Source: an uncultured bacterium (GTDB lineage Bacteria; Babelota; Babeliae; Babelales; Vermiphilaceae). Taken from it: a DNA stretch of 64,000 nucleotides. Below the pieces are notes generated by a model, which had not been told where the DNA came from, did not search any database, and saw only the letters and a program-made list of their open reading frames with translations. Every line of letters begins with the position of its first letter. Within the stretch, counting starts at the first letter, position 1. Shown in pieces: positions 6,514-54,826 of the stretch. The position numbers and the translations under genes were made by a program. The DNA is taken from contig CAWBEW010000002.1 in assembly GCA_963788045.1 (NCBI GenBank), positions 118,596 through 182,595 of the forward strand. The letters run 5' to 3'.

Positions 6514-6635
6514 CGAACGGGTTTGGTATTCTAAGCCCAAAAATCCAGATAATTTTCATCCAACCATTGTTTTTAGATCGGCAAATAAATTATATTTCTA
6601 TTATAATTAATGCATTTAAACTTAGGGGGGACCCA

Positions 6636-11743: not shown

Positions 11744-11748
11744 TAGTA

Positions 11749-12033: not shown

Positions 12034-12070
12034 TAGCGATCCTTTCAAAATATTGTTTTTTTAGTCTTGG

Positions 12071-12373
12071 TTATCGGGTAGCGATATATATTACCAAAAA
12101 TGCAGCTGCACCAGAAACAGCGCCCACACTAAATGATTTGACGAGTGTCTTAAAAGTATACCCATCTTTTCTTGCTTCTTCCAAACTTTCAGCGAGACGA
12201 TGATTTTCAGAACATTTACCCAGATAGGCCTCAACAAGTTCATGTTTGGTGGCATTTTTTGCAAATATTATTTCATGCTGATGCGGATAATGATCGGCAT
12301 TAATGGTATTTGAAACTAAAGAAAGTAGAAGTCCCAGAAAAATATGTTTGCCAAATTGCTTTATTATTAGCAT
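12071..12373 (-). CDS. small hypothetical protein with signal peptide and C-terminal TM helix
   Basis: 100 aa. GKHIFLGLLLSLVSNTINA signal-like. C-terminal SVGAVSGAAAFLVIYIA hydrophobic segment. Confidence 0.45.
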   Translation of the reverse strand: MLIIKQFGKHIFLGLLLSLVSNTINADHYPHQHEIIFAKNATKHELVEAYLGKCSENHRLAESLEEARKDGYTFKTLVKSFSVGAVSGAAAFLVIYIATR

Positions 12374-14277: not shown

Positions 14278-14477
14278 GGTTTTTCTCGATATTTATTATT
14301 AATTAAGGGGGGAATTGATTAGCATCACAAAATACTAAATAACCTCTCCATTTACTCTTCAAGTTTTATCCTAACAGAATATTTCTATCTGTCAAGCACA
14401 AGATCCCATTTTTCCCTGTGGCCGGCATAACCGATCCTTAAGAAAAACGGGATCTTTGCTAATTTGCAACTATTTGT

Positions 14478-14762
14478 TTAGAAATGGCCCGCAGAATAAG
14501 GCAAAAGTGCCATTACGCGTGATTTTCTAATATTGCGTGCCAAATCTCGTTGGTGCAAGCTGCAATTGCCTGAAATACGTGCCGGTAAAATTTTGCCACG
14601 CTCAGTAGGAAATTCTTTAAAAATGCGCCATTTTTATAATCAAGAAGTAGCTTGTTCAGCATTTCCACAGAAACGGCAATGTTTTTTGCCGCCAAAACCT
14701 TGTTTACGGAATCTTTTCTTGAGTAAACGGGCATTAATCTTAAGTTTGATTTTCTTAGTCAT
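14478..14762 (-). pseudogene. rpsR: ribosomal protein S18, at least 2 frameshifts
   Basis: [46 protein letters not shown] and [37 protein letters not shown] lie in three different frames. Confidence 0.7.
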
Positions 14763-14787
14763 AAGTTACCTTTTAAAATTACCTTAG

Positions 14788-14842
14788 AAGCCTGCCCGCC
14801 GAAGCTTGCCGAGCCAGAAGGCCCGGATAAGCGTAGGCTGGA
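14788..14842. repeat. module C repeat copy
   Basis: CCTGCCCGCCGAAGCTTGCCGAGCCAGAAGGCCCGGATAAGCGTAGGCTGG. Near-identical internal hairpin at 59195-59241. Confidence 0.75.
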
Positions 14843-15295
14843 TTACGCCATCAATCGTCTGAAGAGTCCGTTATCATTATCATCAGACAGATCATCTATT
14901 CTGTTATCTTTCATGAATGAGCCAACTTCACGAGCCGGCGTTTCTTCCAGAGATTGTGGGCGTTGATATACCAAAGATTCATGTATCAAGCGCTGATAAT
15001 CATTGAACGCATAACTAAGCTTCATGCATTTTAACATCCAGCAAGGTTTTAACATCTATCAACCAATTCCGGTTGAGCCGTTTCAAAACGAGCCAAGAAA
15101 TAGACGCCGTAATCATTTTTTTTGACTGGGATAGGCCAGGCGATATTTGCCCCAGCGCTCAAAGGAGACCATTGATCCTTTTTTATCGGCAACCAAGCGA
15201 TCAAATTGTTGTTCGATCGATTTGGCTCTCATCCGCAGTAATTTCAGGAACGGTAAGCATAAACGCTTCGTAGCGACTATTAGTTGATTTGACAT
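14843..15295 (-). pseudogene. rpsF: ribosomal protein S6 with acidic tail, at least 3 frameshifts
   Basis: NSRYEAFMLTVPEI, FERWGKYRLAYP, NDYGVYFLARFETAQPELV and VLKCMKL plus the tail DDLSDDNDNG are found in different frames. Confidence 0.6.
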
Positions 15296-15572
15296 ATAAA
15301 AAAGCTCCTTAGGAACTAAATGGAAGTGTTATTACCACTATAAAGCGCACCATGCTGCTTATTTAGTCATATCCAGAAACGGCTATATAAATAAAATGTG
15401 CTCAGGAAACCTAGAATGGATACTAGTATTCCGGCCATTCATCTTCTGGATGGTTAGTCGAGGATCGAACTTACATAGCCTTACCGTAAGCTATGATGAA
15501 GGCATATTTACATAGTACCAGAAATACTGAAAGATCCACTTTCTGGCACTTAATTTTATGAGCGTATGATTT

Positions 15573-23189: not shown

Positions 23190-23232
23190 AAAAATATTTT
23201 TTTCCTGGCATACTTACAATATCAAAAAAATA

Positions 23233-23316
23233 ATCCTTCGATATGCTTCTACGCAGCTACTCAGGATGTGTGCTTGTACACATGGTGAGTGATTGCGCTA
23301 GCAATCGTATCGAACC
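23233..23316. repeat. composite repeat, module B plus module A
   Basis: ATCCTTCGATA-loop-TACTCAGGATGTGTG ... CACATGGTGAGTGATTGCGCTAGCAATCGTATCGAACC. Reverse complement of the 38514-38601 copy, with different loop sequences. Confidence 0.8.
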
Positions 23317-23337
23317 ACACCTTTTAATTATCGCATC

Positions 23338-25287
23338 ATGGCACGCATCAAACAATTATCCCCCCAAGAAGCACAAAAAATCGCCGCAGGCGAAGTCGTC
23401 GAACGCCCGGCAAACGTGGTGAAAGAACTTGTTGAAAATGCTTTGGATGCCGGCGCAACCCAAATCACCATTCATATTCAAGATGCCGGAAAAACATTAA
23501 TCAGAATTGTTGATAATGGATGTGGAATGGGGCAAGAAGATGCGCATCTATGTTTTAAACATCATGCAACCAGCAAAATTACTCGTGTTGACGATCTGCC
23601 AACACTTACCACATTTGGTTTTCGCGGTGAAGCACTTTCGAGTATTGCTGCCGTGAGTAATGTCACCCTCATCACCAAAGAAACTCATACACCGATGGGG
23701 ACCAAGCTGGTACTCCAACAAGGCACCGTTGTTTCTGATGAACAAGCCCCATGTAATAATGGAACTGATATCAGCATTGCTGATCTATTTTTTAATGTCC
23801 CCGCACGCAAAAAATTCTTAAAGACGCATGAAACCGAGTCTCGGCAAATTATGCTTCTGTTTCAAGCATTTTGCTTGGATTATTTGCAGGTTCATTTTAA
23901 ATTATTTTCCCAAGGAAGTTTATTATATAATTGCCCCGCCGTTGCAGACGTTGCACAACGAATTGCGCAACTTTGGGATCATACGGTTGCACAGCAGACA
24001 CTGCCCATCTCCGCTGAAAAAAACGGTACTCGCATTGAAGGCTGCATCTCAAATCATACCTTCTCACGCTATGATCGGTCTGCAATTTTTATTTTTGTTA
24101 ATCAACGATGGGTAAAAAATCATGCACTCAGCAAAGCACTCATCAAAGGATATATGAATGTCTTACAGTCTGATAAATTTCCACTTGCATGCATCTCTAT
24201 AACTATCGATCCGGCATTGGTTGATATTAATATTCATCCTCGAAAAGAAGAAATACAATTTTTAAATCCTCGGATTATTGAGCAATTGCTGCAAACTACG
24301 GTAAAAGAAAATTTAGAAAAACATCTTTCGGCGCAGCTTAATAAGAGGGTTGAGTTTGCAGAACCAAATCCTGGATTTAAAGGATTTGAGAATAAACATG
24401 GTTCGATACGATTGCTTCGCAATCACTCACCACGAACGGACTCCGTAATGCCAGGTTCTTCTGATATAACTCTTGCCCAATCCAAAGAAATTCCATTCCC
24501 ATTCATCCTGCCTGCCCGCCCCTTTGACTATGCTCAGGATAAACTCCACTCGAAGAACGACGGCTGGGAGAAAGCCAAAGGCGCGTCGATGGGGGCGAAC
24601 GGGGAGGATAACCCGTTCGTGCTGAGCCCGTCGAAGCATTCACCAAACGATTCCATTCAAATGCAAAAACCGATCATCGAAGCTCCAACCAAAAATACCC
24701 AACACACCGAATATCAAATAATCGGCCAATTTCATAAAACGTATATTCTCATCGAACAAGAAGAAAGTTTATTTTTAGTTGATCAACACGCAGCGCATGA
24801 AAGAATTTTATACGAACTCTTTTCAACGCGATTTGATGAAGTTGCGACGATCGGTCTTTTATTTCCGCAAATTATTACCCTCAATCCCGATGAAATTCAA
24901 CAGATTGAACCTCATCTGCAAATTTTTACCAGTAATCATATTTCCATTGAAATAATGGGCGCTCACCAACTCATAGTCAACGCAATTCCGGTACATTTAA
25001 AAGAAATAAATATAGAAGAATTAGTACGGCAGACCATCGGATGGATTACTGAATTTCAAAACCTTGAAGCTGATGCCTGGTATAAAAAGGTACATGAAAA
25101 ACTGCATGCGCAGATGGCATGCAAAGCAGCAGTGAAAGCCGGAGATGTTTTAACCATGGTGCAGATGCAGCAATTGTTGCAAGATCTTGAAAAAATAGAA
25201 AACCGCTTCACCTGCCCGCATGGCCGGCCAACCGGATGGGCGCTTCCTTTATATGAGATCGAGAAAAAATTTAAACGGAAATTGTAA
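23338..25287 (+). CDS. mutL: DNA mismatch repair protein MutL with repeat-derived linker insertion
   Basis: N-terminal GHKL ATPase motifs (VVKELVENALDAG, DNGCGM, GFRGEAL). C-terminal QFHKTYIL...DQHAAHERI. The linker contains repeat-derived PFDYAQDKLHSKNDGWEKAKGASMGANGEDNPFVLSPSKHS. Confidence 0.9.
   Translation: MARIKQLSPQEAQKIAAGEVVERPANVVKELVENALDAGATQITIHIQDAGKTLIRIVDNGCGMGQEDAHLCFKHHATSKITRVDDLPTLTTFGFRGEALSSIAAVSNVTLITKETHTPMGTKLVLQQGTVVSDEQAPCNNGTDISIADLFFNVPARKKFLKTHETESRQIMLLFQAFCLDYLQVHFKLFSQGSLLYNCPAVADVAQRIAQLWDHTVAQQTLPISAEKNGTRIEGCISNHTFSRYDRSAIFIFVNQRWVKNHALSKALIKGYMNVLQSDKFPLACISITIDPALVDINIHPRKEEIQFLNPRIIEQLLQTTVKENLEKHLSAQLNKRVEFAEPNPGFKGFENKHGSIRLLRNHSPRTDSVMPGSSDITLAQSKEIPFPFILPARPFDYAQDKLHSKNDGWEKAKGASMGANGEDNPFVLSPSKHSPNDSIQMQKPIIEAPTKNTQHTEYQIIGQFHKTYILIEQEESLFLVDQHAAHERILYELFSTRFDEVATIGLLFPQIITLNPDEIQQIEPHLQIFTSNHISIEIMGAHQLIVNAIPVHLKEINIEELVRQTIGWITEFQNLEADAWYKKVHEKLHAQMACKAAVKAGDVLTMVQMQQLLQDLEKIENRFTCPHGRPTGWALPLYEIEKKFKRKL
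24501..24640. repeat. nested repeat modules C, D and E inside the mutL reading frame
   Basis: CCTGCCCGCC (as at 14791). Module D at 24521-24555 (as at 50668). CGACGGCTGGG (as at 27580). CGTTCGTGCTGAGCCCGTCGAAGCAT at 24614-24639 is the reverse complement of the 59101 copy. Confidence 0.75.
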
Positions 25288-27504: not shown

Positions 27505-27645
27505 CACACATCCTGCCCTTCGACAAGCTCAGGATGAAATCCGCCTTTGAGGCGCGCGCCCGCCATAGCTCGAAGAGCGACGGCTGGGTATCGAAGGATC
27601 GGCCAATGGTTCGATACGATCGCTATCGCGATCACTCACCATGTG
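27505..27645. repeat. composite repeat: short module B + module C + module B/A junction
   Basis: CACACATCCTGCCCTTCGACAAGCTCAGGATGA, CCCGCCATAGCTCGAAGAGCGACGGCTGGG, GTATCGAAGGATCGGCCAATGGTTCGATACGATCGCTATCGCGATCACTCACCATGTG. Confidence 0.8.
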
Positions 27646-27754
27646 TAAATACATCTAACACATCAAAATTTAATTTCTAAAATCTGTCCTTTATGATATA
27701 ATTATATCATAGAATTTTGTCACAAAATATAATTTATTTAAAAATACAAAAAGT

Positions 27755-31703: not shown

Positions 31704-32798
31704 ATGATAGTTCAAAAAAAATCAAAATACAAGCTAAAAACTCATTTCTTATTTTTTAGTTTTTTATTTGCGTTCGCATCTCTTTGGGGATCGCAAGATC
31801 CCTCAAAACATCAAAAATATGAATCTTTCAAAAAACTTTTGCCGGCGGATGATACAACAATCACCTCAATTGAAGATCTTTGTGCCGGAGTGAACACCGA
31901 TATTTCATTATGTAAAACTTCTAAAATGCACTATCTTTTAAGAAGCCCTAAAGCAAAAAAACGGAGCGATTTTTTCACAAAAATGATGCATGTACACCAG
32001 GTGATTTCTGAGCAAAAAAACAGCCCCAAAGTTTATAACTATGACCATGATTCCCAACAAATTCTTATGGAATATATAGAAAATAAACAACCATGGCCCC
32101 GCTATGAAGAATCGCCTGCGCTCTATCATGAAACGGTAAGAGCCTTAAGGCAATTTCATGAAACTGTCTCTAATCCCAACTGCTTTAGCTGTAATTATCC
32201 TCGTGACTATTGGCCGTTTGGCTGGTTGTCCAAACATCCCTTTAATCAAAATCCCCAGGCATATAAAATCCCCGAACAATTAACACAGGCATATGCAAGA
32301 ATTAAAGTCATCGCAGGGAAATTTGCCCCTGCCCCTTCAAAGCGTCCGAGCGTGTGCCATGGGGATTTTCATCAAGGCAATATACTTCTTGAATCGAATG
32401 GGAATGGAATCCGCCCTAAAATAATTGATTTTGATACCATTGAGTATGGAGATCATTTTTATGACCTGGCACGATTTACCAATGAACTTCATAGCAATCA
32501 ACACCTGGCATTATTAAAAACATATTTAGGTGAACGCGAGCCCACCCAAGACGAAATTGAACATTATTCAGTTATTTATAGTATTCATACTGTTGTAGAT
32601 TCAACAATACGGCTTGAAACTTTAAACAACAAGCAGCAATTGCCCACTCAAACCAATCATAACGCCCAAGCACACGTTGACTTTACCTACGCAGTGAAAC
32701 GCCTTGATCAGTTTTTAAAAAATACACAGCATTATTCGAAGAACGAAACTATACAGGAAAAAAATCAAGCACAAACTCAAATGAAATACACATCCTGA
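31704..32798 (+). CDS. APH/choline-kinase-like phosphotransferase with signal-like N-terminus
   Basis: VCHGDFHQGNILL ... IIDFDTIEYGDHFYDLARF (catalytic loop plus DFD). THFLFFSFLFAFASLWG hydrophobic segment. The stop codon lies inside a repeat. Confidence 0.65.
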   Translation: MIVQKKSKYKLKTHFLFFSFLFAFASLWGSQDPSKHQKYESFKKLLPADDTTITSIEDLCAGVNTDISLCKTSKMHYLLRSPKAKKRSDFFTKMMHVHQVISEQKNSPKVYNYDHDSQQILMEYIENKQPWPRYEESPALYHETVRALRQFHETVSNPNCFSCNYPRDYWPFGWLSKHPFNQNPQAYKIPEQLTQAYARIKVIAGKFAPAPSKRPSVCHGDFHQGNILLESNGNGIRPKIIDFDTIEYGDHFYDLARFTNELHSNQHLALLKTYLGEREPTQDEIEHYSVIYSIHTVVDSTIRLETLNNKQQLPTQTNHNAQAHVDFTYAVKRLDQFLKNTQHYSKNETIQEKNQAQTQMKYTS

Positions 32799-32946
32799 GT
32801 AGCAGCCATTGGCTGCGTATCGAAGGATTGGCAAATAATGCCAAAGTTAAAACTGCGCTATCTATTTTTACAATGCAAAGCATTATTCTTTTTAGAACTG
32901 GCCCATCCTTCGATACGCGATGCACAGCATCTCTACTCAGGATGTG
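32789..32946. repeat. MITE-like unit: two inverted module B copies flanking about 75 nt
   Basis: CACATCCTGAGT-AGCAGCCATTGGCTGC-GTATCGAAGGAT (32789-32830) and ATCCTTCGATAC-GCGATGCACAGCATCTC-TACTCAGGATGTG (32905-32946). Confidence 0.75.
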
Positions 32947-33059: not shown

Positions 33060-33341
33060 ATGATAAAGAATTTTATTTTGCTCGTTAGCATGGCATCATG
33101 CGTACTTATTACCGCTAATCCGGAAAAACAACTTTGCACACAAGGCCAATGCAGCAAAAGAAATGCAAATGCATGCAGCTGCTATTGCTCAGTAAAATGC
33201 GGACCGCGAAAAATTGAGCCAGAAGATACGCCAAAATATGATGAAGAAACCGGCCAATGTTTTTGCCAACCACGCGATAAATCTTTATACAAAAGAAATA
33301 GCTGCAATGTTAAAGAAGAAAGAAAATTGATGCGTAAATAA
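33060..33341 (+). CDS. small secreted Cys-rich protein
   Basis: 93 aa. Signal MIKNFILLVSMASCVLITA. 12 Cys in the mature part (CTQGQCSKRNANACSCYCSVKCG ... CFCQP ... C). Confidence 0.55.
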   Translation: MIKNFILLVSMASCVLITANPEKQLCTQGQCSKRNANACSCYCSVKCGPRKIEPEDTPKYDEETGQCFCQPRDKSLYKRNSCNVKEERKLMRK

Positions 33342-33505: not shown

Positions 33506-33895
33506 TTACTCATCTACTTCTTTACTAAAAGGGCACGTTGATTGCCCGCAAATAGAACAAAGAACCATTCTTTTTTTCTTTTGAGCGCTATTTGCTGATA
33601 CCTGCGCTTTAATAAAATTATCAACCGAAGCATTGTTTTGAATGATGTTTTGCGCGATTGCAGCCATATCAGATTTTAAATCGGCAATACCATCATCCTC
33701 TTCTTGAGATTGAGGGTGTTGCTGGTGCTGATGATCGATTTGCTTATCATCATTTGAATACCACCGCTGCTTCTTTTGATCTTTCTTGGATTGAGTTTGC
33801 TGCTGGTCATGCTGCTGGCGCTGCTGCTGTTGTTGCATACCGGATGCGTTAACGCTAAAAAACATGCTTATCACTAAAATTATTATTTTATTCAT
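33506..33895 (-). CDS. secreted Gln-rich protein with C-terminal Cys cluster (paralog pair member)
   Basis: Signal MNKIIILVISMFFSVNA, MQQQQQRQQ, KKQRWYSNDDKQ, C-terminal CSICGQSTCP. Confidence 0.6.
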   Translation of the reverse strand: MNKIIILVISMFFSVNASGMQQQQQRQQHDQQQTQSKKDQKKQRWYSNDDKQIDHQHQQHPQSQEEDDGIADLKSDMAAIAQNIIQNNASVDNFIKAQVSANSAQKKKRMVLCSICGQSTCPFSKEVDE

Positions 33896-33908
33896 AATTA
33901 ACCTCTAT

Positions 33909-34313
33909 TTATACCTGCAATCCGCCACACAACGGGCAGCCGCAGAGCATAATATTACCATGAGCAATGCGATCTTTATCAGCTCCACAGACTTCTGCCG
34001 GTCTACCGCACGTCGGGCAAATCCGCTGATGTTCTTTGTGCTTTAATGTTTCAACCATAGTGGTAACTGCACCATGCTCTTGATTAATTTGATTCATGAT
34101 TACGGCAAGCATTGCATTCAAATCGGCAGTTTCAGGATCAGCTGCTGGCAGCTCGGGCTGCTTATCATCATTTGAATACCAGCGCGGTTTCTTTTGATTT
34201 TTCTGCTTTTCTTTTTGCTGGACTTGATCTGCTTGCTTTTGTGTTTGCTGCATCATGGCAGGCAAAGAGCCTGCCACGAGCATTGGCAATATTAGCAGTG
34301 CTATTTTATTCAT
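33909..34313 (-). CDS. secreted Gln-rich protein with C-terminal Cys cluster (paralog pair member)
   Basis: Signal MNKIALLILPMLVAGSLPA, KKPRWYSNDDKQ, C-terminal CPTCGRPAEVCG ... CGCPLCGG. Confidence 0.6.
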   Translation of the reverse strand: MNKIALLILPMLVAGSLPAMMQQTQKQADQVQQKEKQKNQKKPRWYSNDDKQPELPAADPETADLNAMLAVIMNQINQEHGAVTTMVETLKHKEHQRICPTCGRPAEVCGADKDRIAHGNIMLCGCPLCGGLQV

Positions 34314-34315
34314 GA

Positions 34316-37043
34316 TTAAAATACCTTATCAGGCAGAATATACGTGCCTTTCTTTTGACCTTCGGCAATCTTAAGATCAGCCAATGCCTGGTCAAAGTTA
34401 GCCTGAGTGATAAGCGTCTGGCGATTTCTCATAGCAAGTTGAGCCGCTTTATCAACCAGATTCTTAATATCGGCTGCGTTGCATCCTTCCATCGCTTTTG
34501 CAAGCACATCAAACGATATCGTGGTATCCACCGGCTTGCCTTTGCAATAGAATGCAAAGAGCGCCATACGTTTTTCATAGTTAGGCAATGCAACTTCAAT
34601 AATGGTGTCGAACCTACCCGCACGCATTAATGCAGGATCCAAGAGTGTTGGGGCATTGGTTGCCGCCATTACTATCACCGATTCGTCTTTATAGAATCCA
34701 TCCATTTGCGTGAGTAATTCGGTGATCGTTTGATTCGTTTCAGAAGTATCAGCGGTAGCACGGGATCCGATCGCATCAATTTCATCGATGAAGATAATCG
34801 TTTTACCAAAACGGTTACCTTCTGCTTTGGTACGCGCATCATTAAAGAGATCTCGCACACGCTGAGCCCCGACACCAACATATTTTTCTATAAATTCAGA
34901 ACCTTTTGCTTGAATAAACTCGCACCCGGTTTCTTCAGCAATTGCACGCGCAAGCGCCGTTTTACCGGTTCCTGGAGGGCCTGCTAATAAGACACCTTTT
35001 GGAAATGGAACTCCAAAAGCCGAATAGTTATATTCTCCCTTGATCATCTTGACCAAGTCTTCAATAGATGGATCAACCCCACCTACCAAACGCTTAAATC
35101 CTTTGACAGCATCTTTGCCGCCAAAGATTACATCAAGCGCATCCAACTGCTGTTGAATATCTTTATCACCTTTGATCATACGTTCTTTAAGAGTCTTTCT
35201 GATCGCTTCCACAAAATGCTTTTGCTTAAGGCTTTTAATACCCTCTTTTAACGCTGCTGCAGATGCCTTTTGAACCAATTCTTTTAAATCAGCCGGACTA
35301 AAATTATTAGCAGCTTCAGCTATTTTTCTCAGGTTAACATCAGGATCAAGCGGAATATTGGCAGTATAAAGCTTTAACACCTGCTCACGTTTATTAAGAT
35401 CAGGCAAGCCAATTTTGATAATCTTGCTGAATCTGCCCGGACGCAATAATGCTGGATCAATATTATTTGGGTGATTTGAAGCAGCCATCACGATGATAGA
35501 ATTATCTTCTTCAAATCCATCCATCTGGGTTAATAATTCAGTAATGGTCGCATCAAGAGAGTTACCTTGGCGCTTACCAATTGAATCAAGCTCATCAATA
35601 AAGATTATCGTTTTCTTTGACTCGCTATTTACTGCTTTTTGGCGTGCTTCTTTAAAAAGATCGCGGACCTTTTGAGCACCCGCGCCCACAAATTGGTCCA
35701 CAAATTCTGCAGCCGAAACTGCCATAAATTCGCAACCGGCCTCTTCTGAAAGCGCTCGCACTAATGAAGTCTTACCCGTTCCTGGAGGGCCAGAGAGCAA
35801 GATCCCTTTTGGCAAATCTAAGCCATACTTTTTATACACTTCATCATTCTTGATCTGTTTTACCAACTCAGTGATCTCATCAGGAACCTCACCAACTAGG
35901 CGCGCAAATCCCTTCTTTTCTTCTTTTTTTTGATTAAGAAGACTCAACATTACTTTTACCCGTACTGATACATCTTTATCAATACGCCCTTTAGCTTGAA
36001 GCACTTTTATGATTGCCTCAATCATATGTTTTTCAGTAATAAATGATGCTTGGTCTCGTTTAGCAAATATATGCGCATAGTTTATTAATTGTTTTAAATC
36101 CGCGGGAGTAAAGTTATAGGTAAATTGCGCAATCCTGCTTACATTCAGACGAGAATCAAAGGGAACGTTGCCCGCTTGATTAAATTTGATAAGCATTGCT
36201 TCCCGTTCTGCCGGGTTAGGCAATTGCATTTCAATTATTTTATCAAAACGGCCAGAACGTAAAAATGATTTTTCAAAATTTTCTGTGCTTGTACTTGCTC
36301 CGATGACAATTACTGAATCATCTTTAGCAAATCCATCCATCTCATTTAACAATGCGATCGCATCATTGGATAGTTTTTGATGTCGCAAAAACATCAAGAT
36401 CATCGAGAAATAAAACGGTTTTGCCATGTCTATTTGATTGAGCCTTCTTTCGTGCCGCTTCAAAAACTTTCTGGATATCTTCAGCGGTGATGCCTGCAGC
36501 ACTTTGATACATAAAGGGGCAGTCTAATTCTTCTGAAAGCGCCTTTGCTACACTCGTTTTACCGCTGCCAGTTTGCCCTATCAAAAAAATGCCGCGCGAT
36601 TGCTTGATAGCATATCGTGTATTTGTGCTGATGTTTGCATCTTTAAAATAACTTGCAAACTCGATAATCTCTTGCGGAACGGATCCTTCCAGAGCCGCAA
36701 AACCCTTGGGTGCCACTGGAACATTTACAACCGGGCTTGGATTTTGATTGTAGGGATTGCCAAATTGGTTATTCCTATTACCGCCTAAATTATTAGGATT
36801 ATAAGAATTATAGGGTTGATTATTATTCTGATACATTCCTGCATGCGCCGGCACTATCGCCATGATACTTGCAAGAAAAATAAACTTACCAAACCGTTCG
36901 GGTCGATGGAAGCCTGCAAGGCTGAATGGAGACCTCTCCACTCGGCTCCTTTCGGAGCCTCTATCGAGGCGAACGGAGGATGGAAAATATAGCTTCGAAG
37001 GGGATTTAAGTAGTGAATAATAATTCATGAGTAAAATCTCCAT
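34316..37043 (-). CDS. three-module classic-clade AAA+ ATPase (Cdc48/FtsH-like), interrupted by one frameshift
   Basis: ORFs 36363-37043 and 34316-36502 overlap by 140 nt. Walker A GQTGSGKT and Walker B LFLDDLD of module 1 are in the first ORF; its continuation SNDAIALLNEMDGF ... RSGRFD is in the second. Modules 2 and 3 are intact (GPPGTGKT, IFIDELD/IFIDEID, RPGRF/RAGRF). ATG abuts the upstream stop (TAAATG). Confidence 0.8.
36894..36976. repeat. module F palindromic element inside the 5' coding region of the AAA+ gene
   Basis: Reverse complement of 2701-2774, with different loop sequences that still self-pair. Translated as SSVRLDRGSERSRVERSPFSLAGFHRPER. Confidence 0.8.
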
Positions 37044-37748
37044 TTAGGATAGGGTAATTAAATTTTTATTGAGTAACGTTTGCTGAATATCAGTTGGCTG
37101 CGCATTAAATATATCTTTTAAATGCGCGGTATTTAGTGGTAACGGCTTTTTTAATGTTTCTTGATAAAAATCGATGAGCACAAAAAAAGCACGCCTTGAA
37201 TCTGCTGTTGAAGAATCATAAAGACCGAAATAATTTGACGAAATTCCACTGTTATTAAGCTCCTTGTTCAAATATTTATTAGCGAGCGTATCATATCGTC
37301 CATTCCAATTTAGATACTTGTGAGCAATAAATTCTTTCATGACCTCATCGGGCATTTCAGCTAATTTTTGTAACTGAGGATTTTTAATCATTTTGTATTT
37401 GAGCAAATTAGAAATTCGCTTTTCTTGCAGTAGTTGAGCATAAAAGCTTACTAAGCGAAATGTCTGCTCATCTAATGCATCGATAAAAGTAAATAACCGG
37501 GCATCAGTTTTGGCTGCCAGCACCATCATGAATGCAAAACCTTTTGAATCAATGGGCAGTTTAAGAGCTTCTTCAGGCGAACGCTTTCCAAATTCGATCA
37601 TTACCGCGTTACTTTTTAACACATTGAGGAGCTCTTGATCTTCATATTCAATTATTCTATCAGTACATTGCACTTTAATAGGCTTGGCGCAAAGCGGCAG
37701 GCAAAGCCCAGTAAGTGAGACCGCAAAAAATGTTTTAATCAAATTCAT
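37044..37748 (-). CDS. secreted Skp1/BTB-like protein (paralog 2)
   Basis: Signal MNLIKTFFAVSLTGLCLPLCA. IKVQCTDRIIEYEDQELL, LKLPIDSKGFAFMMVL and LDEQTFRLVSFYAQLLQEKRISNLL align by eye with Skp1. C-terminus shared with 37762-38481. Confidence 0.5.
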   Translation of the reverse strand: MNLIKTFFAVSLTGLCLPLCAKPIKVQCTDRIIEYEDQELLNVLKSNAVMIEFGKRSPEEALKLPIDSKGFAFMMVLAAKTDARLFTFIDALDEQTFRLVSFYAQLLQEKRISNLLKYKMIKNPQLQKLAEMPDEVMKEFIAHKYLNWNGRYDTLANKYLNKELNNSGISSNYFGLYDSSTADSRRAFFVLIDFYQETLKKPLPLNTAHLKDIFNAQPTDIQQTLLNKNLITLS

Positions 37749-37761
37749 AAAAAACCTCTAT

Positions 37762-38481
37762 TTAGGGAATAATAACCAATTGCTTTTTGAGCAATTCATT
37801 TTGAAGAGCCAAATCAAAACTGTTAAAAACATCTTTTAAATGCTGAGTAGTAAGCCTTAAGGGCTTTTTGATCACGCGTTGATAGAAATCGATCAATACA
37901 AAAAAAGCACGCGTATCATTGCCAGCGGCACCGGTTGGTATTTTCATAAATCCGGCAAACTCTAGCACATATTTCTCAAAAAGATCTACCAACTTCCATT
38001 TACCCGCATCAGAGCCTACCCCCTCAATGAATTGGAAGGTGGTATATTTTGAGTCTACAAAATCGGTAATGGCTTGGTTGCCCTGAGGGCTATATTCTTT
38101 TACATATTTATATTTAAAGAGCAGATCGATCTCATGATACACCCGCAAATATTTTGCATAGTAATCAAATATTCTAAATTCATCCGGATTTAATGAATCG
38201 ATAAATGCAAAAACTTTAGCATCGCTTAATTTGGATAGTTTTATAAATAAGTTAAGAGATCGAGTATCAATACCAGTAAGTGAAAATTCCGTAGTTTCAT
38301 ACTGCGAATTCATCTGATACATAGGGTTGATCAGAGTATCTTGAGTAATCCTGAGGCACTTAGATCCACGCAAATCGGCCATTTCAAATTGAGCCTGGCC
38401 GTCAGAGCATGTTACCGTGACCATTTGTGCATTCGCAAAGGAAAAAGAGGCAAGCAAAAGCGGTAGAAATAATCGAATCAT
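37762..38481 (-). CDS. secreted Skp1/BTB-like protein (paralog 1)
   Basis: GAGGA SD. MIRLFLPLLLASFSFANA signal. VTVTCSDGQAQFEMADL, LNPDEFRIFDYYAKYLRVYHEIDLL. C-terminal RAFFVLIDFYQRVIKKPLRL. Confidence 0.5.
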   Translation of the reverse strand: MIRLFLPLLLASFSFANAQMVTVTCSDGQAQFEMADLRGSKCLRITQDTLINPMYQMNSQYETTEFSLTGIDTRSLNLFIKLSKLSDAKVFAFIDSLNPDEFRIFDYYAKYLRVYHEIDLLFKYKYVKEYSPQGNQAITDFVDSKYTTFQFIEGVGSDAGKWKLVDLFEKYVLEFAGFMKIPTGAAGNDTRAFFVLIDFYQRVIKKPLRLTTQHLKDVFNSFDLALQNELLKKQLVIIP

Positions 38482-38513
38482 GTAATCCTCACATTTTGAG
38501 AAACTTTTTCTAT

Positions 38514-38601
38514 GGTTCGATACGATTGCTGAGGCAATCACTCACCATGTGTGTGCTATCTACACATCCTGAGTGCGAGCAAGGCGAGCGTATCGAAGGA
38601 T
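38514..38601. repeat. composite repeat, module A plus module B
   Basis: GGTTCGATACGATTGCTGAGGCAATCACTCACCATGTGTG ... CACATCCTGAGTGCGAGCAAGGCGAGCGTATCGAAGGAT. Confidence 0.8.
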
Positions 38602-38847
38602 TCTCTATACCATGAGAATACCAAATTAATAATTATAATCAAATTTAGTATTTTTATTTTTTATATTAATTTTTAATAGAAAATATTATTCACCTTTATT
38701 TGCCAGATAAAGGGGGAGAAAAGGGCCAAAATACACGAGATTCAGGCGCCTTTATTTATAATATTGCCTATTTGAATATTTTTATAGTAGGCTAACAATT
38801 AAAGAGCATAATGCTCTGGCAATGCCTATAAAAAGAAGGATTTTTAT

Positions 38848-43298: not shown

Positions 43299-44138
43299 AT
43301 GAAGCATAGCATTCTTATGTTTGCGTTTTTAGTGTCACCATTACTAGCAGATGGCCCAGGGGATAGCAAAGATGCTGCCCTAAAATATTTACGCAGTTAC
43401 AGTGGCTTTAGAACATTTTTATTATCATACCCGCGCTCAGGAAACACCTGGCTTAGGTATATATGCGAAAGAACTACCCATTGTCCAACCTTTATGAAAG
43501 CAGGACTGGGCAAGAGAATAGATCAACCACTGGCATGGAGTTGCGGTTTTGATGATCTTGATTGGAGCAAGCCTCCTATTGAAAAAGCACATTTGCGCAG
43601 AGAGCTCAACGGCAGTAATAGTGCTCCTGGCAATAAGCTGATCGTACTCATACGAAATCCAAAAGAAGCACTCATGAGAACTCAACACAAACTTATTACT
43701 ATGGATATTCTTTTAGGCAAAGAAAAGGGATACGTTAAAGGTTCCGATTACTTTGACGCCATAAGCGTGTATGACTCTTGGGATGCGGATAAACGGCTCT
43801 TGGTCTATTATGAAAATTTACTCACCAATCCTGGCCCAGAGATAGCTCGCATTCTTAATTTTTTAAATGAGCCGCTCACCGCGCTGGACGATTTTATGAG
43901 AGACTATCAAAAACATAAAAAAATATGTTTGGATCTTTATAAAGATGGAGAATCAAAAGGCGAAGACCTTTTGTTTCATTCCAAAAAAACATATCCGGCA
44001 TATCGCCTTTTAGTTGACCAATGGATCGAACAGCTGTATCCGGTCTGGTGGAATAAATACCTCAAGCAATATTATGCAGAAGAAGTTCTTAATTATGAAG
44101 ACTCAAGGATCGTTACAATCGATTGGGAAAATGAGTAG
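43299..44138 (+). CDS. secreted sulfotransferase (paralog 1)
   Basis: Signal MKHSILMFAFLVSPLLA. LLSYPRSGNTWLRY (5'-PSB loop like PKSGTTW) and VLIRNPKEALMR (3'-PB like RNPKD). Confidence 0.7.
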   Translation: MKHSILMFAFLVSPLLADGPGDSKDAALKYLRSYSGFRTFLLSYPRSGNTWLRYICERTTHCPTFMKAGLGKRIDQPLAWSCGFDDLDWSKPPIEKAHLRRELNGSNSAPGNKLIVLIRNPKEALMRTQHKLITMDILLGKEKGYVKGSDYFDAISVYDSWDADKRLLVYYENLLTNPGPEIARILNFLNEPLTALDDFMRDYQKHKKICLDLYKDGESKGEDLLFHSKKTYPAYRLLVDQWIEQLYPVWWNKYLKQYYAEEVLNYEDSRIVTIDWENE

Positions 44139-44765: not shown

Positions 44766-44838
44766 CCAACTCTTGCAGTACAAATACTTTTATCATTAAT
44801 ATCATGAAAAAGTGACCCACTAAAAAAGGTGTTTTTTG

Positions 44839-45654
44839 ATGAAAGAACGCAAAACGTTCAAAAAGTACGACTTCTTATTTTTGCTTCTTGTTGCATCATC
44901 GGTAAGATGCCAATCTAAAGATCAGATGATTGAGTATCTGCGCATGTATAATGGTCCCCATACTTTCCTATTATCATATCCCCGCTCGGGAAACACCTGG
45001 TTACGCTATTGTTTAGAATATCTTACTCATTGCCCGAGTTTTATGAGAACAATGCTCAAAAATATGAGAGATCAGCCGCTTGCCTGGAGTGTTGGATTTG
45101 AAATTGATATGGCCAAGCCGCCCATTGAAAAGATTCATATTCGCACGCAATTAAATGATGCGAACACCCATTCGGATAATAAACTCATTCTTATTATTCG
45201 TAATCCAAAAGAAGCGATTACCAGAAATGAGCACAATCTTATTACGTTAGAAATTTTGCAGGGCAAAGAAAGTGTCTCACTGTATAATAGAGCACCCAAT
45301 TATTTTGATAACATTGCCATTTATGATGAATGGGATGCAAGCAAACGGCTCTTAGTATATTATGAAGATCTTTTAACAAAACCACGAAAAACATTGATTC
45401 GCATTCTGGAATTTTTGGACGAGCCGACCTCCGGCGTTCATGATTTTATGAAAACGTATAAAAAACATCAAAAAAAGTGCCTTCATGCGTATAAAGAAGG
45501 CGAATCAAATGGCGATCTTCTTTTTCATTCTAAAAATACCCCACCCGAATATCGCCGACTCATTGATGAATGGATCGAACAATTTTATCCAAAAATATGG
45601 AAAAAATATTTAAGGCATCGGTATTCAGAGAACGTACTTAACTATACGCCATGA
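44839..45654 (+). CDS. secreted sulfotransferase (paralog 2)
   Basis: LLSYPRSGNTWLRYCLEY and LIIRNPKEAITR. Collinear with 43299-44138 through to the C-terminus (DEWIEQFYP / DQWIEQLYP). Confidence 0.7.
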   Translation: MKERKTFKKYDFLFLLLVASSVRCQSKDQMIEYLRMYNGPHTFLLSYPRSGNTWLRYCLEYLTHCPSFMRTMLKNMRDQPLAWSVGFEIDMAKPPIEKIHIRTQLNDANTHSDNKLILIIRNPKEAITRNEHNLITLEILQGKESVSLYNRAPNYFDNIAIYDEWDASKRLLVYYEDLLTKPRKTLIRILEFLDEPTSGVHDFMKTYKKHQKKCLHAYKEGESNGDLLFHSKNTPPEYRRLIDEWIEQFYPKIWKKYLRHRYSENVLNYTP

Positions 45655-48633: not shown

Positions 48634-49476
48634 GTGCCCAAGCCAAACTATAATAAACCTATTCTTATAATAAAGGATTCCATGCAACTAAAATCTCGCT
48701 ATCACATCCTAAAAGATTTCCTTTTTTACTATGGCTGCACATTGAGTATTATCTATGCAATGCAAATAGCAAGCAATTTGCTCGGCAAGAAATTGCCATT
48801 TAGCGATTCAAATCAAAATCCTTATGCCTTTTTTGCAATATTACTACTGATTTTAATTACTCAGCCATATTTTGAAGCATGGGGCAGAAAAAAGACGATT
48901 GCCGATTATTTTCCTGAAGGCATCAAAGAAACAAATACGAATGATCAAGAAATCACTATTCCATTTCAAAAAGAAGGCATGAAGACCGGATTGTCTATTT
49001 GCTTCTTGATGATCATCTTCTTTCTCGGACTTTTCTACATGAGCAGCGACCTCTATAAATTTCTGGGCCACTACATCACCTTTTTCTTGCAAAGCATTAT
49101 AGTCATCACTACTTTGCTATTTCTTGTTGTATTTATATATGGAATTCTCCAAAACAAAAAACTAGAAGACTTAGCACGACTCACTCATCAAGGCATATGG
49201 GTTAGATACTTTGGATTTATCCCATGGACTGATATCGTCGTACTCGATAAATTCCAATATGGAACCCCTTTGATTAGTATCGGCATTCGAGTAAAAGACT
49301 TAGAAAAGTTATCCAAACAGGCCTCATTTAACGGAAAAATGGCAATCTTTTGGTCAAAATTCTTCGGCTATCCACCTATAATAATTGCAAATACCCAGAT
49401 GGATAATGAGCAGATAATAGCTTTTGCTCGAAGATTTATATCGCATGAGAATAATCAAGATGCCTTCAGGGATTAA
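48634..49476 (+). CDS. multi-pass membrane hypothetical protein; last codons derived from a toxin-gene remnant
   Basis: GTG start abuts the previous stop (alternative ATG at 48682). The final 6 codons and the stop fall inside DNA homologous to the 3' end of the 54124-54507 toxin gene. Confidence 0.45.
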   Translation: MPKPNYNKPILIIKDSMQLKSRYHILKDFLFYYGCTLSIIYAMQIASNLLGKKLPFSDSNQNPYAFFAILLLILITQPYFEAWGRKKTIADYFPEGIKETNTNDQEITIPFQKEGMKTGLSICFLMIIFFLGLFYMSSDLYKFLGHYITFFLQSIIVITTLLFLVVFIYGILQNKKLEDLARLTHQGIWVRYFGFIPWTDIVVLDKFQYGTPLISIGIRVKDLEKLSKQASFNGKMAIFWSKFFGYPPIIIANTQMDNEQIIAFARRFISHENNQDAFRD

Positions 49477-49861
49477 GGAAAAGGCCTTAAAATTAAAATC
49501 TGATTATTTAAAAATGAGTAAAAGAAGGGACTTATTATGACTAAGAAAATCAAATCAACCTATGGCAAGCTCATGGAATCAATGAGCGCTAAAGAAAAAA
49601 AAGAATACGAAAAAGATCTTAAGGATTTCATCATTTCTGAGCTTATTTTAGCTGCCATGGAAGAAGACAATATCTCAGTAAGAAAATTGGCAAGGCTTGC
49701 AGATATCACCTACTATTGTTCAGGAAATGAGAAGTGGCGTAAAAAAGAGTCTCAATACTGATACTTTTTTTAAAGTACTTAAAGGTCTTGGCTATAACGT
49801 CTTTTTAGAAAGAAATGGGCATGTTACTCCCTTGGGTGTTTCTCATATTCACAAAAAATAG
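49457..49861 (+). pseudogene. degraded copy of the Gp49/HigB-HTH toxin-antitoxin module (toxin deleted, antitoxin frameshifted)
   Basis: Collinear with 54422-54826. MTKKIKSTYGKLMESMSAKEKKEYEKDLKDFIISELILAAMEEDNISVRKLA matches the intact antitoxin, then the frame is lost. FFKVLKGLGYNVFLERNGHVTPLGVSHIHKK is recovered in another frame. Confidence 0.8.
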
Positions 49862-53803: not shown

Positions 53804-53860
53804 AGCATACCTATATAAAAAAATTCTATGAATATTAGTTCCTAAAGAAAAAGGCGCTGC

Positions 53861-53889
53861 GTCCGCCGAAGCTCGAAGAGCGTAGACTG
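53861..53889. repeat. module C repeat copy (short)
   Basis: GTCCGCCGAAGCTCGAAGAGCGTAGACTG. Compare CCCGCCATAGCTCGAAGAGCGACGGCTGG at 27558-27586. Confidence 0.65.
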
Positions 53890-53935
53890 AATAGCCAAAT
53901 TTTTAACGTATTAAAAATTTGGCGTTACTTAGTTG

Positions 53936-54123: not shown

Positions 54124-54507
54124 ATGGATGAAAAATTTATAGCCTATAAAGGCAAAAAGTTCACCATTGAATGGTATTATAATGCCAAGAAAGAAAGTAC
54201 AGCTCAGGAGTATTTTGAAGAACTAACTTTGGATCGTAAAAAGAAATTCGCCCAATTACTCAAAGTGATGGGAGAGATGGGGCAGATAAGAAATAGAGAA
54301 AAATTTACTACTGAAGACGATCAGATATATGCTTTTAAGCCGCAGCCTGATAGATTTCTCTGCTTTTTCTTTACGGGAGGCAAAATTATCATAACCAATG
54401 CCTATGAAAAGAAATCACAAAAGATGCCTCCAGGGATAAAGGAAAAGGCCTTAAAATTAAAAGCTAATTATATAAAAAGAGTAAAAGAAGGGACTTATTA
54501 TGACTAA
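54124..54507 (+). CDS. Gp49-like (DUF891) RelE/HigB-family toxin
   Basis: 127 aa. ...YAFKPQPDRFLCFFFTGGKIIITNAYEKKSQKMPPGIKEKA pattern. Overlaps the downstream HTH gene by 8 nt (toxin-first order as in HigBA). Confidence 0.7.
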   Translation: MDEKFIAYKGKKFTIEWYYNAKKESTAQEYFEELTLDRKKKFAQLLKVMGEMGQIRNREKFTTEDDQIYAFKPQPDRFLCFFFTGGKIIITNAYEKKSQKMPPGIKEKALKLKANYIKRVKEGTYYD

Positions 54508-54826
54508 GAAAATCAAATCAACCTATGACAAGCTCATGGAATCAATGAGCGCTAAAGAAAAAAAAGAATACGAAAAAGAGCTTAAGGATTTTATCATTTC
54601 TGAGCTTATTTTAGCTGCCATGGAAGAAGATAATATCTCAGTAAGAAAATTGGCAAAACTTGCAGGAGTATCGCCTACTATTGTTCAAGAAATGCGGACA
54701 GGCGTCAAAAAAAGTTTTAATACTGATACTTTTTTCAAAGTACTTAAAGGCCTTGGCTACAATGTTTTTTTGGAACGAAACGGGCATATTACTCCTTTAG
54801 AAGTTGCTCATATGCATAAAAAATAA
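54500..54826 (+). CDS. XRE-family HTH antitoxin (HigA-like)
   Basis: 108 aa. NISVRKLAKLAGVSPTIVQEMRTG helix-turn-helix. Confidence 0.7.
   Translation: MTKKIKSTYDKLMESMSAKEKKEYEKELKDFIISELILAAMEEDNISVRKLAKLAGVSPTIVQEMRTGVKKSFNTDTFFKVLKGLGYNVFLERNGHITPLEVAHMHKK

Follow-up and report, generated by a model that had tools for sequence, protein, structure and literature searches.

The window analysed here, a stretch of 64,000 nt from an uncultured bacterium (contig CAWBEW010000002.1, positions 118,596–182,595), carries an operon of five minus-strand genes (Table 1). Genes 1 and 2 are paralogs (29% identity over 224 aa, E = 1e-24) with a predicted BTB/POZ (Skp1-like) fold in the N-terminal part, the third gene encodes an ATPase with three AAA modules, and genes 4 and 5 form a second pair of paralogs (33% identity over 119 aa, E = 4e-13) that end in a Cys-rich tail. 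A first-pass annotation of the window had described the two pairs of paralogs, the intergenic gaps of 13, 0, 2 and 13 nt, and a set of motifs: RAFFVLIDFYQ..KKPL in genes 1 and 2, RWYSNDDKQ and CxxCG knuckles in genes 4 and 5, and the Walker A, Walker B and R[SPA]GRF sequences of the AAA protein. All of these are found, and the open reading frame (ORF) list confirms the coordinates, with the AAA gene present as two ORFs. In our estimate the chances are evenly balanced that the operon specifies an unfoldase module that is exported through Sec and directed at the host, the BTB-fold and Cys-tail proteins being its fast-evolving partners.

Export signals and conservation of the block

All five products start with a signal-like segment, which consists of one to three Lys/Arg residues, 10–17 uncharged residues and a small-x-small site. 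The predicted cleavage sites (marked by a slash) are ...SFANA/Q in gene 1, where the N-terminus reads MIRLFLPLLLASFSFANA/Q, ...LPLCA/K in gene 2, ...PAHA/G in the AAA protein, ...SLPA/MMQQ in gene 4 and ...NASG/MQQQ in gene 5. A lipoprotein signal was considered and rejected, as no lipobox is present. The AAA family as a whole was compared through 32 representatives (clusters of 790–870 aa, 43–100% identity, at least 87% coverage). About 28 of these 32 have one to three Lys/Arg residues at the N-terminus followed by an uncharged run of 7–17 residues (median 12), and the exceptions resemble truncated gene calls. Hydrophobic runs of this length are too short for a membrane anchor, which was considered in place of a signal peptide and rejected.

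The expectation that the block is kept in related genomes is borne out, and the same gene order is found in at least six other metagenomic genomes. The full layout consists of a gene 1-like gene, one to four gene 2-like genes, an AAA gene of 862–869 aa and two or three Cys-tail genes. It is present at the comparison loci L001, L003, L004, L005–L008, L010 and L018, with the AAA gene intact in all except L010 and L018. L005–L008 represent the metagenome-assembled genome (MAG) MFD01828.bin.2.56 and sister assemblies, and L010 is a 91%-identical sister genome with many indels. Identity between the BTB-like proteins of L018 and those of the window clade is only about 25%, yet the order of three BTB-like genes, AAA gene and three Cys-tail genes is kept. 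Synteny extends beyond the block in L003 (Nramp, IMP dehydrogenase, MutL). An upstream M48 peptidase is common to L003 and L004, and in the window an M48 peptidase stands further upstream. A scan of genome contigs found the block in one GTDB species genome only, MAG MFD01828.bin.2.56, and scans of metagenome contigs with gene 1/2 patterns and AAA-linker patterns found nothing. In this MAG the locus occurs twice, on separate contigs and in versions that are 91% identical, perhaps owing to mixed binning.

The ratio of nonsynonymous to synonymous substitution rates (dN/dS) is 0.05–0.30 over all five genes; synonymous sites are near saturation for most pairs, and the L003–L004 pair (dS 0.5–0.8) gives the same picture. 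Values are 0.05–0.11 for the AAA gene and 0.11–0.30 for genes 1, 2, 4 and 5 (gene 1, 0.14–0.26; gene 4, 0.14–0.24; gene 5, 0.13–0.20), the accessory proteins evolving two to three times faster than the AAA protein. This purifying selection indicates that the five genes are real.

The AAA protein

Gene 3 had been described as an ATPase with three complete AAA modules. The three classic-clade modules stand; the gene itself is split across two frames in the window, and module 1 is complete only after a correction of 1 nt. The 728-aa fragment matches Pfam PF00004 in three stretches (302 bits, E = 6.7e-91) and AAA_lid_3 (PF17862) in three stretches (104 bits), and the 226-aa fragment matches PF00004 over aa 153–223 (47 bits). 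Assignment to the classic clade is based on the PF00004 and PF17862 matches, which exceed the gathering score. Walker A reads GQTGSGKT, GPPGTGKT and GPPGTGKT in modules 1–3, Walker B reads LFLDDLD, IFIDELD and IFIDEID, and RSGRF, RPGRF and RAGRF are found in the same order.

Walker A, the DE of Walker B, the sensor-1 Asn and both Arg fingers do not vary in modules 2 and 3 across all 32 representatives, and the pore loops of these two modules are [FLY]-V-G and YVG, respectively. In module 1, Walker A and the Arg fingers are retained, Walker B has D-D in 24 of the 32, sensor 1 is H, N or Q, and there is no pore loop. By these motifs, modules 2 and 3 are fully competent, probably as translocating modules, and module 1 is degenerate. 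The latter is a probable nucleotide-binding assembly module that lacks the catalytic Glu; a degenerate nucleotide-binding module also occurs in other tandem AAA proteins.

Among solved structures, VAT, Cdc48/p97, AFG2/SPATA5 and NVL come nearest (modules 2 and 3, E values of 1e-75 to 1e-92), and FtsH comes next. CDC48_N and CDC48_2 are absent among the best 25 of the 39 Pfam families matched by the 226-aa part and the best 25 of the 71 matched by the 728-aa part, and Peptidase_M41 and FtsH_ext are absent among the same best 25 matches. The NCBIfam CDC48 model (TIGR01243) gives 399.8 bits, below its cut-off of 802.65. The top NCBIfam model is FtsH (TIGR01241), with 585.8 bits summed over the three modules, which is below the cut-off of 600. 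Judged by these profile matches, the AAA protein is Cdc48-like at the level of the AAA modules only.

The family comprises about 32 clusters, one of which is annotated as a Candidatus Babeliales bacterium (57% identity). Most relatives have a KGF.AL.G..P.E motif directly after the signal peptide, a motif that also opens modules 2 and 3, and the Asn/Gln/Pro-rich linker is confined to the window clade. The next relatives are FtsH-like proteins of 1124–1438 aa, one named Acidimicrobiales, that contain several classic AAA modules together with Peptidase_M41. Proteins with several classic AAA modules thus exist outside the triple-AAA family as well. Literature searches on three-module AAA proteins or on such an operon returned nothing relevant.

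A core of signal-peptide AAA protein and small Cys-tail proteins is found without adjoining genes 1 and 2 at four loci. The small proteins 3′ of the AAA gene are of 119 and 110 aa in L011 (Babeliales) and of 103 and 172 aa in L012, and there are seven paralogs in L014. L017 has a 181-aa protein ending HERICPYC...RLAHG...CGCKDCQG, and then ankyrin proteins. L016 has a family member that stands alone, without such partners. Since distant genomes pair the AAA gene with MQQQ/Cys-tail genes where genes 1 and 2 do not adjoin, the ancestral unit is the exported-type triple AAA protein plus the MQQQ/Cys-tail proteins. For the same reason the BTB-fold genes are a lineage-specific addition in one sub-lineage, and not the heart of the system.

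The Cys-tail proteins

The gene 4 product has a signal peptide, a mature N-terminus beginning MQQ..., a Gln/Lys-rich disordered region, a helix and the C-terminal knuckles HxRICPTCG...C...RIAHG...CGCPxCGG. Written out as HxRICPxCG-x6-C-x8-AHG-x5-CGCPxCGG, the motif has six Cys and two His. Gene 5 ends in LCxICxxxxCPFSKEV[DE]E. CPxCG knuckles are typical of zinc ribbons, and the Cys/His cluster of the gene 4/5 proteins probably binds metal.

Orthologs of gene 4 lie directly 3′ of the AAA gene in L001, L003–L008, L010, L017 and L018, and orthologs of gene 5 are found in L001, L004, L005 and L018; the gene 5 C-terminal motif is also present in the small proteins 3′ of the AAA gene in L011 and L012. 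Neither gene has a meaningful match in Pfam, NCBIfam, PADLOC or PHROGs. The small proteins of the distant genomes are built in the same way, with a signal peptide, a Gln/Lys-rich stretch and a Cys cluster at the C-terminus. The sequence A/MQQQ marks the predicted cleavage site in nearly every small protein of L001, L003–L005, L011, L012, L014, L017 and L018; the mature N-terminus may thus be conserved as such, or MQQQ may serve as a motif for sorting or recognition.

Genes 1 and 2 and the question of a BTB/Skp1 fold

Genes 1 and 2 had been proposed to be Skp1/BTB-like on the basis of three segments aligned by eye with eukaryotic Skp1. This proposal holds at the level of the predicted fold and fails at the level of sequence. 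Pfam shows no family at E ≤ 1 for either gene, Skp1 (PF01466), Skp1_POZ (PF03931) and BTB included, and likewise none in 10 distant members of the gene 1/2 family; NCBIfam, PADLOC and PHROGs gave nothing for either gene. Profile searches of PDB sequences with gene 1/2 alignments of 9 and 21 sequences brought up no Skp1 or BTB chain, and the armadillo and ETV6 matches that did appear were judged spurious. Alignment of the gene 1/2 profile with human SKP1 by hhalign has a probability of 0.3%, which is insignificant. This insignificant alignment pairs the β1-β2-β3 segments just as the alignment by eye did, and the three segments of the latter, which has no statistical standing, fall on β1-β2, β3 and the fifth helix of the structural model.

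The model of gene 2 made with AlphaFold2 (AF2) has a mean predicted local distance difference test score (pLDDT) of 82.8 and a predicted TM score (pTM) of 0.80, with pLDDT of 82–96 over aa 21–140. The order of its elements, β-β-α-α-β-α-α-α-α, is one we take to be that of Skp1. In a Foldseek search of PDB, the top 50 of 50 matches are Skp1/BTB-POZ chains (Skp1 in SCF complexes, KCTD, KBTBD/KLHL, SPOP, gigaxonin and Kelch13), and the best of these are Skp1 chains. Probabilities reach 0.99, target-normalised TM scores are 0.54–0.64, and the best root-mean-square deviations are 3.7–4.2 Å over 103–118 columns. Matches in BFVD, the viral structure library, are almost only to BTB/POZ/Kelch proteins of giant viruses and poxviruses. 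With E-values that are weak, it is the uniformity of the matches and the element order that lead us to predict, with good confidence, a BTB/POZ (Skp1-like) fold for the N-terminal part of gene 2, and by homology for gene 1.

The C-terminal ~100 aa of the gene 1/2 family are without a structural counterpart in the fold matches, and the most conserved motif of the family, LIDFYQETLKKPLPLNT.HLK, is located in this C-terminal helical domain. The family is very narrow. Homologs of gene 2 number eight among 5.8 billion proteins, and a full HMMER scan of 1.84 billion cluster representatives finds 19 members of the family, none of which links it to BTB proteins of eukaryotes. Orthologs of gene 1 that are 57–61% identical occupy the same position in L001, L003 and L004.

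L001 contains four gene 2-like paralogs. One of these (251 aa, 11474–12229) and the AAA protein of the same locus (12959–15568) have an identical 21-residue signal peptide, MNRYSLLIIITGAMAIMPAHA, which points to recent recombination or duplication inside the block.

State of the AAA gene in the window

The two ORFs of the AAA gene are in different frames, one of 226 aa (36363–37043) that ends ...LFLDDLDVFATSKTIQ at its stop codon and one of 728 aa (34316–36502). The frameshift is at an A5 run between Walker B and sensor 1 of module 1, where A4 would hold the frame. Orthologs are uninterrupted across this site (...VFANPKLSNDAIALL... and LFIDDLDVFANPKLSNDAIALLNEMDGF), and the 226-aa fragment is 64% identical to the N-termini of intact orthologs. 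Deletion of one base gives a single stop-free ORF of 908 aa, which shares 84% identity with the L001 ortholog (869 aa). There is no further stop or indel over the remaining 2.7 kb and no relaxed constraint, the window copy having a dN/dS of 0.047 and 91% amino-acid identity relative to L001. As there is no other lesion and no relaxation, the frameshift would be either an assembly error or a very recent inactivation. Neither programmed +1 frameshifting nor slippage during transcription is a likely cause, and both were rejected: the orthologs are in frame with an A4 equivalent, the A5 run is short, and it is not followed by a rare codon or a stop that could stimulate a shift. Nor is the AAA gene an inactive pseudogene in all relatives: the orthologs are intact, except in L010 and L018, and have the low dN/dS given above.

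The AAA gene also has a 44-codon in-frame insertion, the window reading MNYYSLL[44 aa]LASIMAIVPAHAG where orthologs read MNRYSLLIIITGAMAIMPAHAG. The insert is a GC-rich palindromic repeat of a family of ~85–130 nt and folds at −51.5 kcal/mol. Other copies are at positions 2701–2774 and 5727–5851 of the window and, in an intergenic position, at 8932–9008 of L003 (96% over 54 nt). In-frame palindromic elements exist in Rickettsia, and the repeat in the AAA gene is reminiscent of them.

This raises the question of whether the block is a decaying remnant in this genome, with the AAA gene a true pseudogene and the flanking small genes on the way out. The split ORF with its A5 insertion can be looked at in this way, as can the two repeats, one in frame in the signal-peptide region and the other in the leader of gene 1, and the deposited annotation gives a 692-aa product for the AAA gene. 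A housekeeping GTPase gene in the window, BipA/TypA (12477–14277, minus strand), has at least four frameshifts at non-homopolymer sites (e.g. an extra G in CCGGT). It might be either a true pseudogene or the result of a locally poor assembly, which bears on how the AAA frameshift is to be read. However, the 2.7 kb free of stops and indels and the undiminished constraint on the AAA gene speak against decay, and genes 1, 2, 4 and 5 are intact. In the sister assemblies, single-base indels are numerous (L010, 10247–14421; L018, 10404–12858): they affect the AAA gene in both and gene 2 and a gene 4-type gene in L010, with substitutions that are mostly synonymous. This suggests that long-read assembly errors are common in such material, and a homopolymer assembly error is equally plausible for the window. 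Decay of the block is therefore an explanation that we regard as doubtful, although it fares better than the other alternatives treated below.

Upstream region and neighbouring features

Gene 1 has a GAGGA Shine-Dalgarno sequence (38486–38490) and an ATG at 38481, which are common to the orthologs in an upstream alignment. Further upstream is a near-invariant block of ~60–80 nt, ...AAATTAAT...GATTTGATTATAATTATTAATTTGTTATTCTCATGGTATAG in an alignment of five genomes, where the adjoining proteins are ~55–65% identical. Blastn finds this block 5′ of every gene 1 ortholog (L001, L003–L010). The near-invariance of the block and of GAGGA indicates that gene 1 is the first gene of a co-regulated unit. 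The block is probably a promoter plus an operator for some regulator; a promoter consensus scan did not flag it on the minus strand. It contains an inverted pair, AAATTAAT/ATTAATTT, ~30 nt apart, and is better conserved than the adjoining proteins. Its positions elsewhere are ~9200–9270 in L001, ~1730–1790 in L003, ~2530–2580 in L004 and ~5390–5450 in L005.

Table 1. Features of the operon and its immediate surroundings (positions within the window)
Feature	Position	Strand	Description
Gene 1	37762–38481	minus	Exported-type 239-aa protein, paralog of gene 2; from ORF list
Gene 2	37044–37748	minus	Exported-type 234-aa protein, predicted N-terminal BTB/POZ (Skp1-like) fold at ~aa 23–130
AAA gene, 5′ part (frame A)	36363–37043	minus	226 aa: signal peptide, Asn/Gln/Pro-rich linker, module 1 up to Walker B
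AAA gene, 3′ part (frame B)	34316–36373	minus	Remainder of module 1, with sensor 1, Arg fingers and lid; modules 2 and 3 in full
Gene 4	33909–34313	minus	Exported-type 134-aa protein, Gln/Lys-rich, C-terminal knuckle cluster
Gene 5	33506–33895	minus	Exported-type 129-aa paralog of gene 4, shorter C-terminal motif
Convergent small protein	33060–33341	plus	93 aa, exported-type, 10 Cys; syntenic with the block; membership of the system uncertain
Conserved AT-rich non-coding block	38605–38690	minus	5′ of gene 1; putative promoter/operator; from upstream alignment of 5 genomes
REP/MITE-like repeat	38512–38602	unassigned	Between the conserved upstream block and the gene 1 ribosome-binding site
In-frame palindromic repeat	36876–37007	minus	132 nt, within the signal-peptide coding region of the AAA gene
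A5 run with one extra base	36374–36378	minus	+1 frameshift that splits the AAA gene

The repeat in the leader of gene 1, which resembles a repetitive extragenic palindrome (REP) or miniature inverted-repeat transposable element (MITE), is a ~100-nt insertion present in the window only, according to the upstream alignment. Related copies are at 27556–27646, 23232–23317, 24398–24432 and 32787–32829. Further families of short REP/MITE-like intergenic repeats are represented at 14794–14841 and 59195–59242, and at 53859–53898.

The convergent Cys-rich protein has orthologs that are 49–57% identical in the same convergent position in L003 (7213–7518) and L004 (8309–8602), and a further copy of 87 aa in L010 (14938–15201). 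It has no family match in NCBIfam, PADLOC or PHROGs. Searches of these libraries and of Pfam with the two small proteins that flank the block likewise gave nothing meaningful. At the other end of the block, an exported-type protein of 650–685 aa is encoded 5′ of the operon in L001 (7152–9104), L005 (3242–5299) and L010 (7099–9156), and none is present in the window. It has dozens of NxxxG-type repeats and resembles a tail fibre or adhesin; a Peptidase_S74 match is limited to a 322-aa C-terminal fragment of the L007 counterpart. Type II/type IV-pilus genes are found 2–8 kb 5′ of the block at two unrelated loci, L018 (1–5552; two secretins and PilM) and P0045 (a T2SSE ATPase). The closeness may be accidental or may reflect a functional tie with secretion.

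The window is ~38% GC. A USP protease, many ankyrin proteins and an F-box-like protein had been listed among its other genes. The first is a UCH/USP-type protease at 6567–8285 and at least seven ankyrin proteins were found, but no F-box-like protein was detected among the ~40 larger ORFs scanned. There are also two paralogous eukaryote-type sulfotransferases (43299–44138 and 44836–45654), two further M48 peptidases, and ordinary bacterial housekeeping genes and tRNAs. A ~390-nt repeat (49474–49860 and 54437–54825) is duplicated 5 kb apart among tandem ankyrin genes. The UCH/USP protease, the sulfotransferases and the ankyrin-gene repeat can be seen as further signs of a host-interaction gene island. 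Eukaryotic contamination was ruled out by the tight gene packing, the Shine-Dalgarno sequences and the flanking bacterial housekeeping genes and tRNAs. Contigs of related genomes are up to 1.1–1.2 Mb long. The gene content, taken with the Babeliales-named homolog, suggests a host-dependent, Dependentiae/Babeliales-like bacterium that probably dwells in protists.

Possible function of the operon

If the operon is a host-directed module, its products would leave the cell by Sec and then by the type II pathway or in vesicles, as has been proposed for effectors of Dependentiae, and would act in the host cytosol, where ATP and reducing conditions exist. The AAA protein would assemble into a ring that works as an unfoldase or segregase. 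The BTB-fold and Cys-tail proteins would either lend it specificity as adaptors or partners or be its clients, and the BTB-fold proteins might dock onto host cullin or F-box machinery. There is precedent for such export in the Dependentiae. Babela massiliensis has signal-peptide AAA-Ulp1 fusions predicted to be secreted into the amoeba, with type II as the sole secretion system detected, and 79 of its 126 ankyrin proteins carry signal peptides (PMC4378268). In Chromulinavorax, 44% of the coding sequences have signal peptides, putative effectors included (PMC6561590).

Several points weigh against a host-directed module. The AAA gene is disrupted in the window copy, no secretion-system gene is present within the window, and an exported ring ATPase of ~860 aa would be an unusual cargo. 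The signal peptides were called by inspection and with a crude script. A link of genes 1 and 2 to Skp1 or BTB at the sequence level was not found in the profile searches described above; the AF2 model of gene 2 was built from a 9-sequence alignment, and its Foldseek E-values are weak (0.01–1). The AF2 model of gene 4 (pLDDT 54.7, pTM 0.22) is mostly disorder and helix in long stretches, with a small knot at the C-terminus, and is too unreliable for a fold to be assigned. Placement among the Dependentiae is based on gene content and one named homolog, the 57%-identical AAA protein of a Babeliales MAG.

A bolder proposal is that a three-module AAA+ unfoldase works outside the bacterial cytoplasm. 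It might be a secreted Cdc48-like segregase with BTB/Skp1-fold adaptors into host cullin-RING or other complexes, or else the first periplasmic AAA+ machine, which host ATP supplied to the periplasm of an energy parasite would make possible, with the MQQQ/Cys-knuckle proteins as clients or cofactors in either case. We put this forward tentatively, with distinctly less confidence than the general reading of an exported, host-directed module.

The first-pass annotation had pointed to the ubiquitin pathway, of which Skp1 and Cdc48 are both components in eukaryotes. In its strict form, which is a narrower version of the host-directed reading, the idea is mimicry of a ubiquitin ligase: genes 1 and 2 would bind host Cul1, Cul3 or F-box proteins, and the AAA protein would play the role of Cdc48/p97 in extracting ubiquitylated targets. 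The structural matches headed by Skp1 of SCF complexes and by Cul3 adaptors are consistent with this, as are the correspondence of gene 2 with Skp1 element by element, the like pairing of β1-β2-β3 in the insignificant hhalign alignment, and the position of VAT, Cdc48, p97, AFG2 and NVL as the nearest solved relatives of modules 2 and 3. The UCH protease in the window is of a secreted type, and host ubiquitin signalling is a reported target of Dependentiae (PMC4378268). Nevertheless, no Skp1, BTB or F-box sequence signal is detected, and the AAA protein is without the Cdc48 N-domain and cofactor-binding tail and has 400 bits where the CDC48 cut-off is 803. The best-conserved part of genes 1 and 2 is the non-BTB C-terminal motif, and BTB domains are general oligomerisation modules. 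We consider ligase mimicry unlikely, because the support is at the level of the fold and because the core of AAA and Cys-tail proteins exists without the BTB-fold genes.

Slightly less probable still is an envelope-resident machine, in which the AAA protein and its partners would stay with an energy parasite, either in its periplasm or at the cell surface, and would unfold, disaggregate or translocate Cys-tail or other envelope proteins. In such a parasite host ATP has in any case to pass the outer membrane on its way to the ATP/ADP translocases, and the machine would be a periplasmic AAA+ unfoldase. The components bear Sec-type signals and no other effector mark, and the AAA protein has no substrate-binding N-domain. 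Its partners in the core are small proteins whose N-terminal tail is disordered, and such tails are typical sites of engagement by unfoldases. Secretin and ATPase genes of the type II/type IV-pilus class lie within a few kb of the block in L018 and P0045, but this is seen in two loci only and could equally mean secretion. In addition, no ATP/ADP translocase is seen in the window, periplasmic ATP is an assumption, and CPxCG knuckles and a BTB/Skp1-like fold are typical of the reducing eukaryotic cytosol. A periplasmic AAA+ machine would be without precedent; we know of no periplasmic AAA+ unfoldase in bacteria.

An Iet-type anti-phage defence system (IetA AAA ATPase plus partner), to which PADLOC IetA models (284 bits) and NCBIfam IteA (215 bits) might point, is very improbable and effectively ruled out by the absent partner gene, as there is no IetS-like protease, the similarity is that of classic AAA modules in general (215 bits where the IteA cut-off is 510), genes 1, 2, 4 and 5 have no PADLOC match, and the components bear export signals.

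Two elements of the operon are surprising: the exported-type three-module classic AAA ATPase, and a BTB/Skp1-like predicted fold that is invisible at the level of sequence. AAA+ unfoldases are regarded as cytoplasmic, as this is where ATP is, and a family of ~30 clusters with export signals in most of its representatives challenges this view. A family under strong purifying selection, usually found beside small exported-type partners, points to a new way of manipulating hosts or the bacterium's own envelope, and residence in the envelope would be the more radical finding if true. Genes 1 and 2 are candidates for deep structural mimicry of eukaryotic ubiquitin-ligase adaptors, going by the predicted fold. 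The system is small and modular and can be tested with recombinant proteins, for which the intact orthologs supply sequences.

Comparison with known systems

The operon, the gene 1/2 family and the MQQQ/Cys-tail family are undescribed in the literature searched and in the family libraries. The AAA protein has much in common with Cdc48/p97/VAT and AFG2/NVL, i.e. tandem AAA modules with AAA_lid_3, an aromatic-hydrophobic-Gly pore loop, a DE Walker B, the sensor-1 Asn and Arg fingers. The degeneracy of one module is likewise shared with several type II AAA proteins. Cdc48/p97 differs in that it has two modules where there are three here; the triple-AAA protein has no N-domain among the matches listed, bears a Sec-type signal and is encoded in a bacterial operon with unrelated small proteins. 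FtsH is likewise a bacterial AAA protein of the classic clade, and FtsH_fam is the top NCBIfam model for the triple-AAA protein. The latter, however, has a single hydrophobic run of 10–17 aa and not two transmembrane helices, and shows no Peptidase_M41 or FtsH_ext among the matches listed. Torsins are also signal-peptide AAA+ ATPases that work outside the cytosol (in the lumen of the endoplasmic reticulum) with small activating partners, but they are eukaryotic, belong to a Clp/Hsp100-related clade, have a single module and are homologous in the AAA+ core only.

Skp1/BTB-POZ adaptors of cullin-RING ligases resemble gene 2 in the predicted N-terminal fold and in the order of its elements, whereas genes 1 and 2 have no detectable sequence homology to them and carry an extra C-terminal domain of ~100 aa as well as signal peptides. 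Among bacteria, BTB-box and F-box proteins are reportedly part of the gene-family expansions in amoeba-associated Chlamydiae. The chlamydial BTB proteins are said to be Pfam-recognisable, usually fused to repeat domains and present as large paralog families, whereas genes 1 and 2 are sequence-invisible, small and operon-linked to an AAA gene. A study of amoeba-associated Chlamydiae describes expanded ubiquitination-related gene families (PMC4209131), and the chlamydial BTB proteins are interpreted as modulators of host ubiquitination. The likeness to the operon is in bacterial proteins of protist symbionts that have a eukaryote-type BTB fold, a predicted one for genes 1 and 2.

A further parallel is Babela massiliensis, in which signal-peptide AAA proteins predicted to be secreted into the amoebal cytoplasm via type II occur alongside secreted UCH hydrolases, F-box proteins and ankyrin proteins (PMC4378268). 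The Babela proteins differ in having one AAA domain fused to a permuted Ulp1 peptidase and are Babela-specific, while the operon described here specifies three AAA modules, no peptidase, and BTB-fold and Cys-tail partners. By analogy with these cases, the operon fits a known theme, that of eukaryote-like effectors with signal peptides in protist-associated bacteria.

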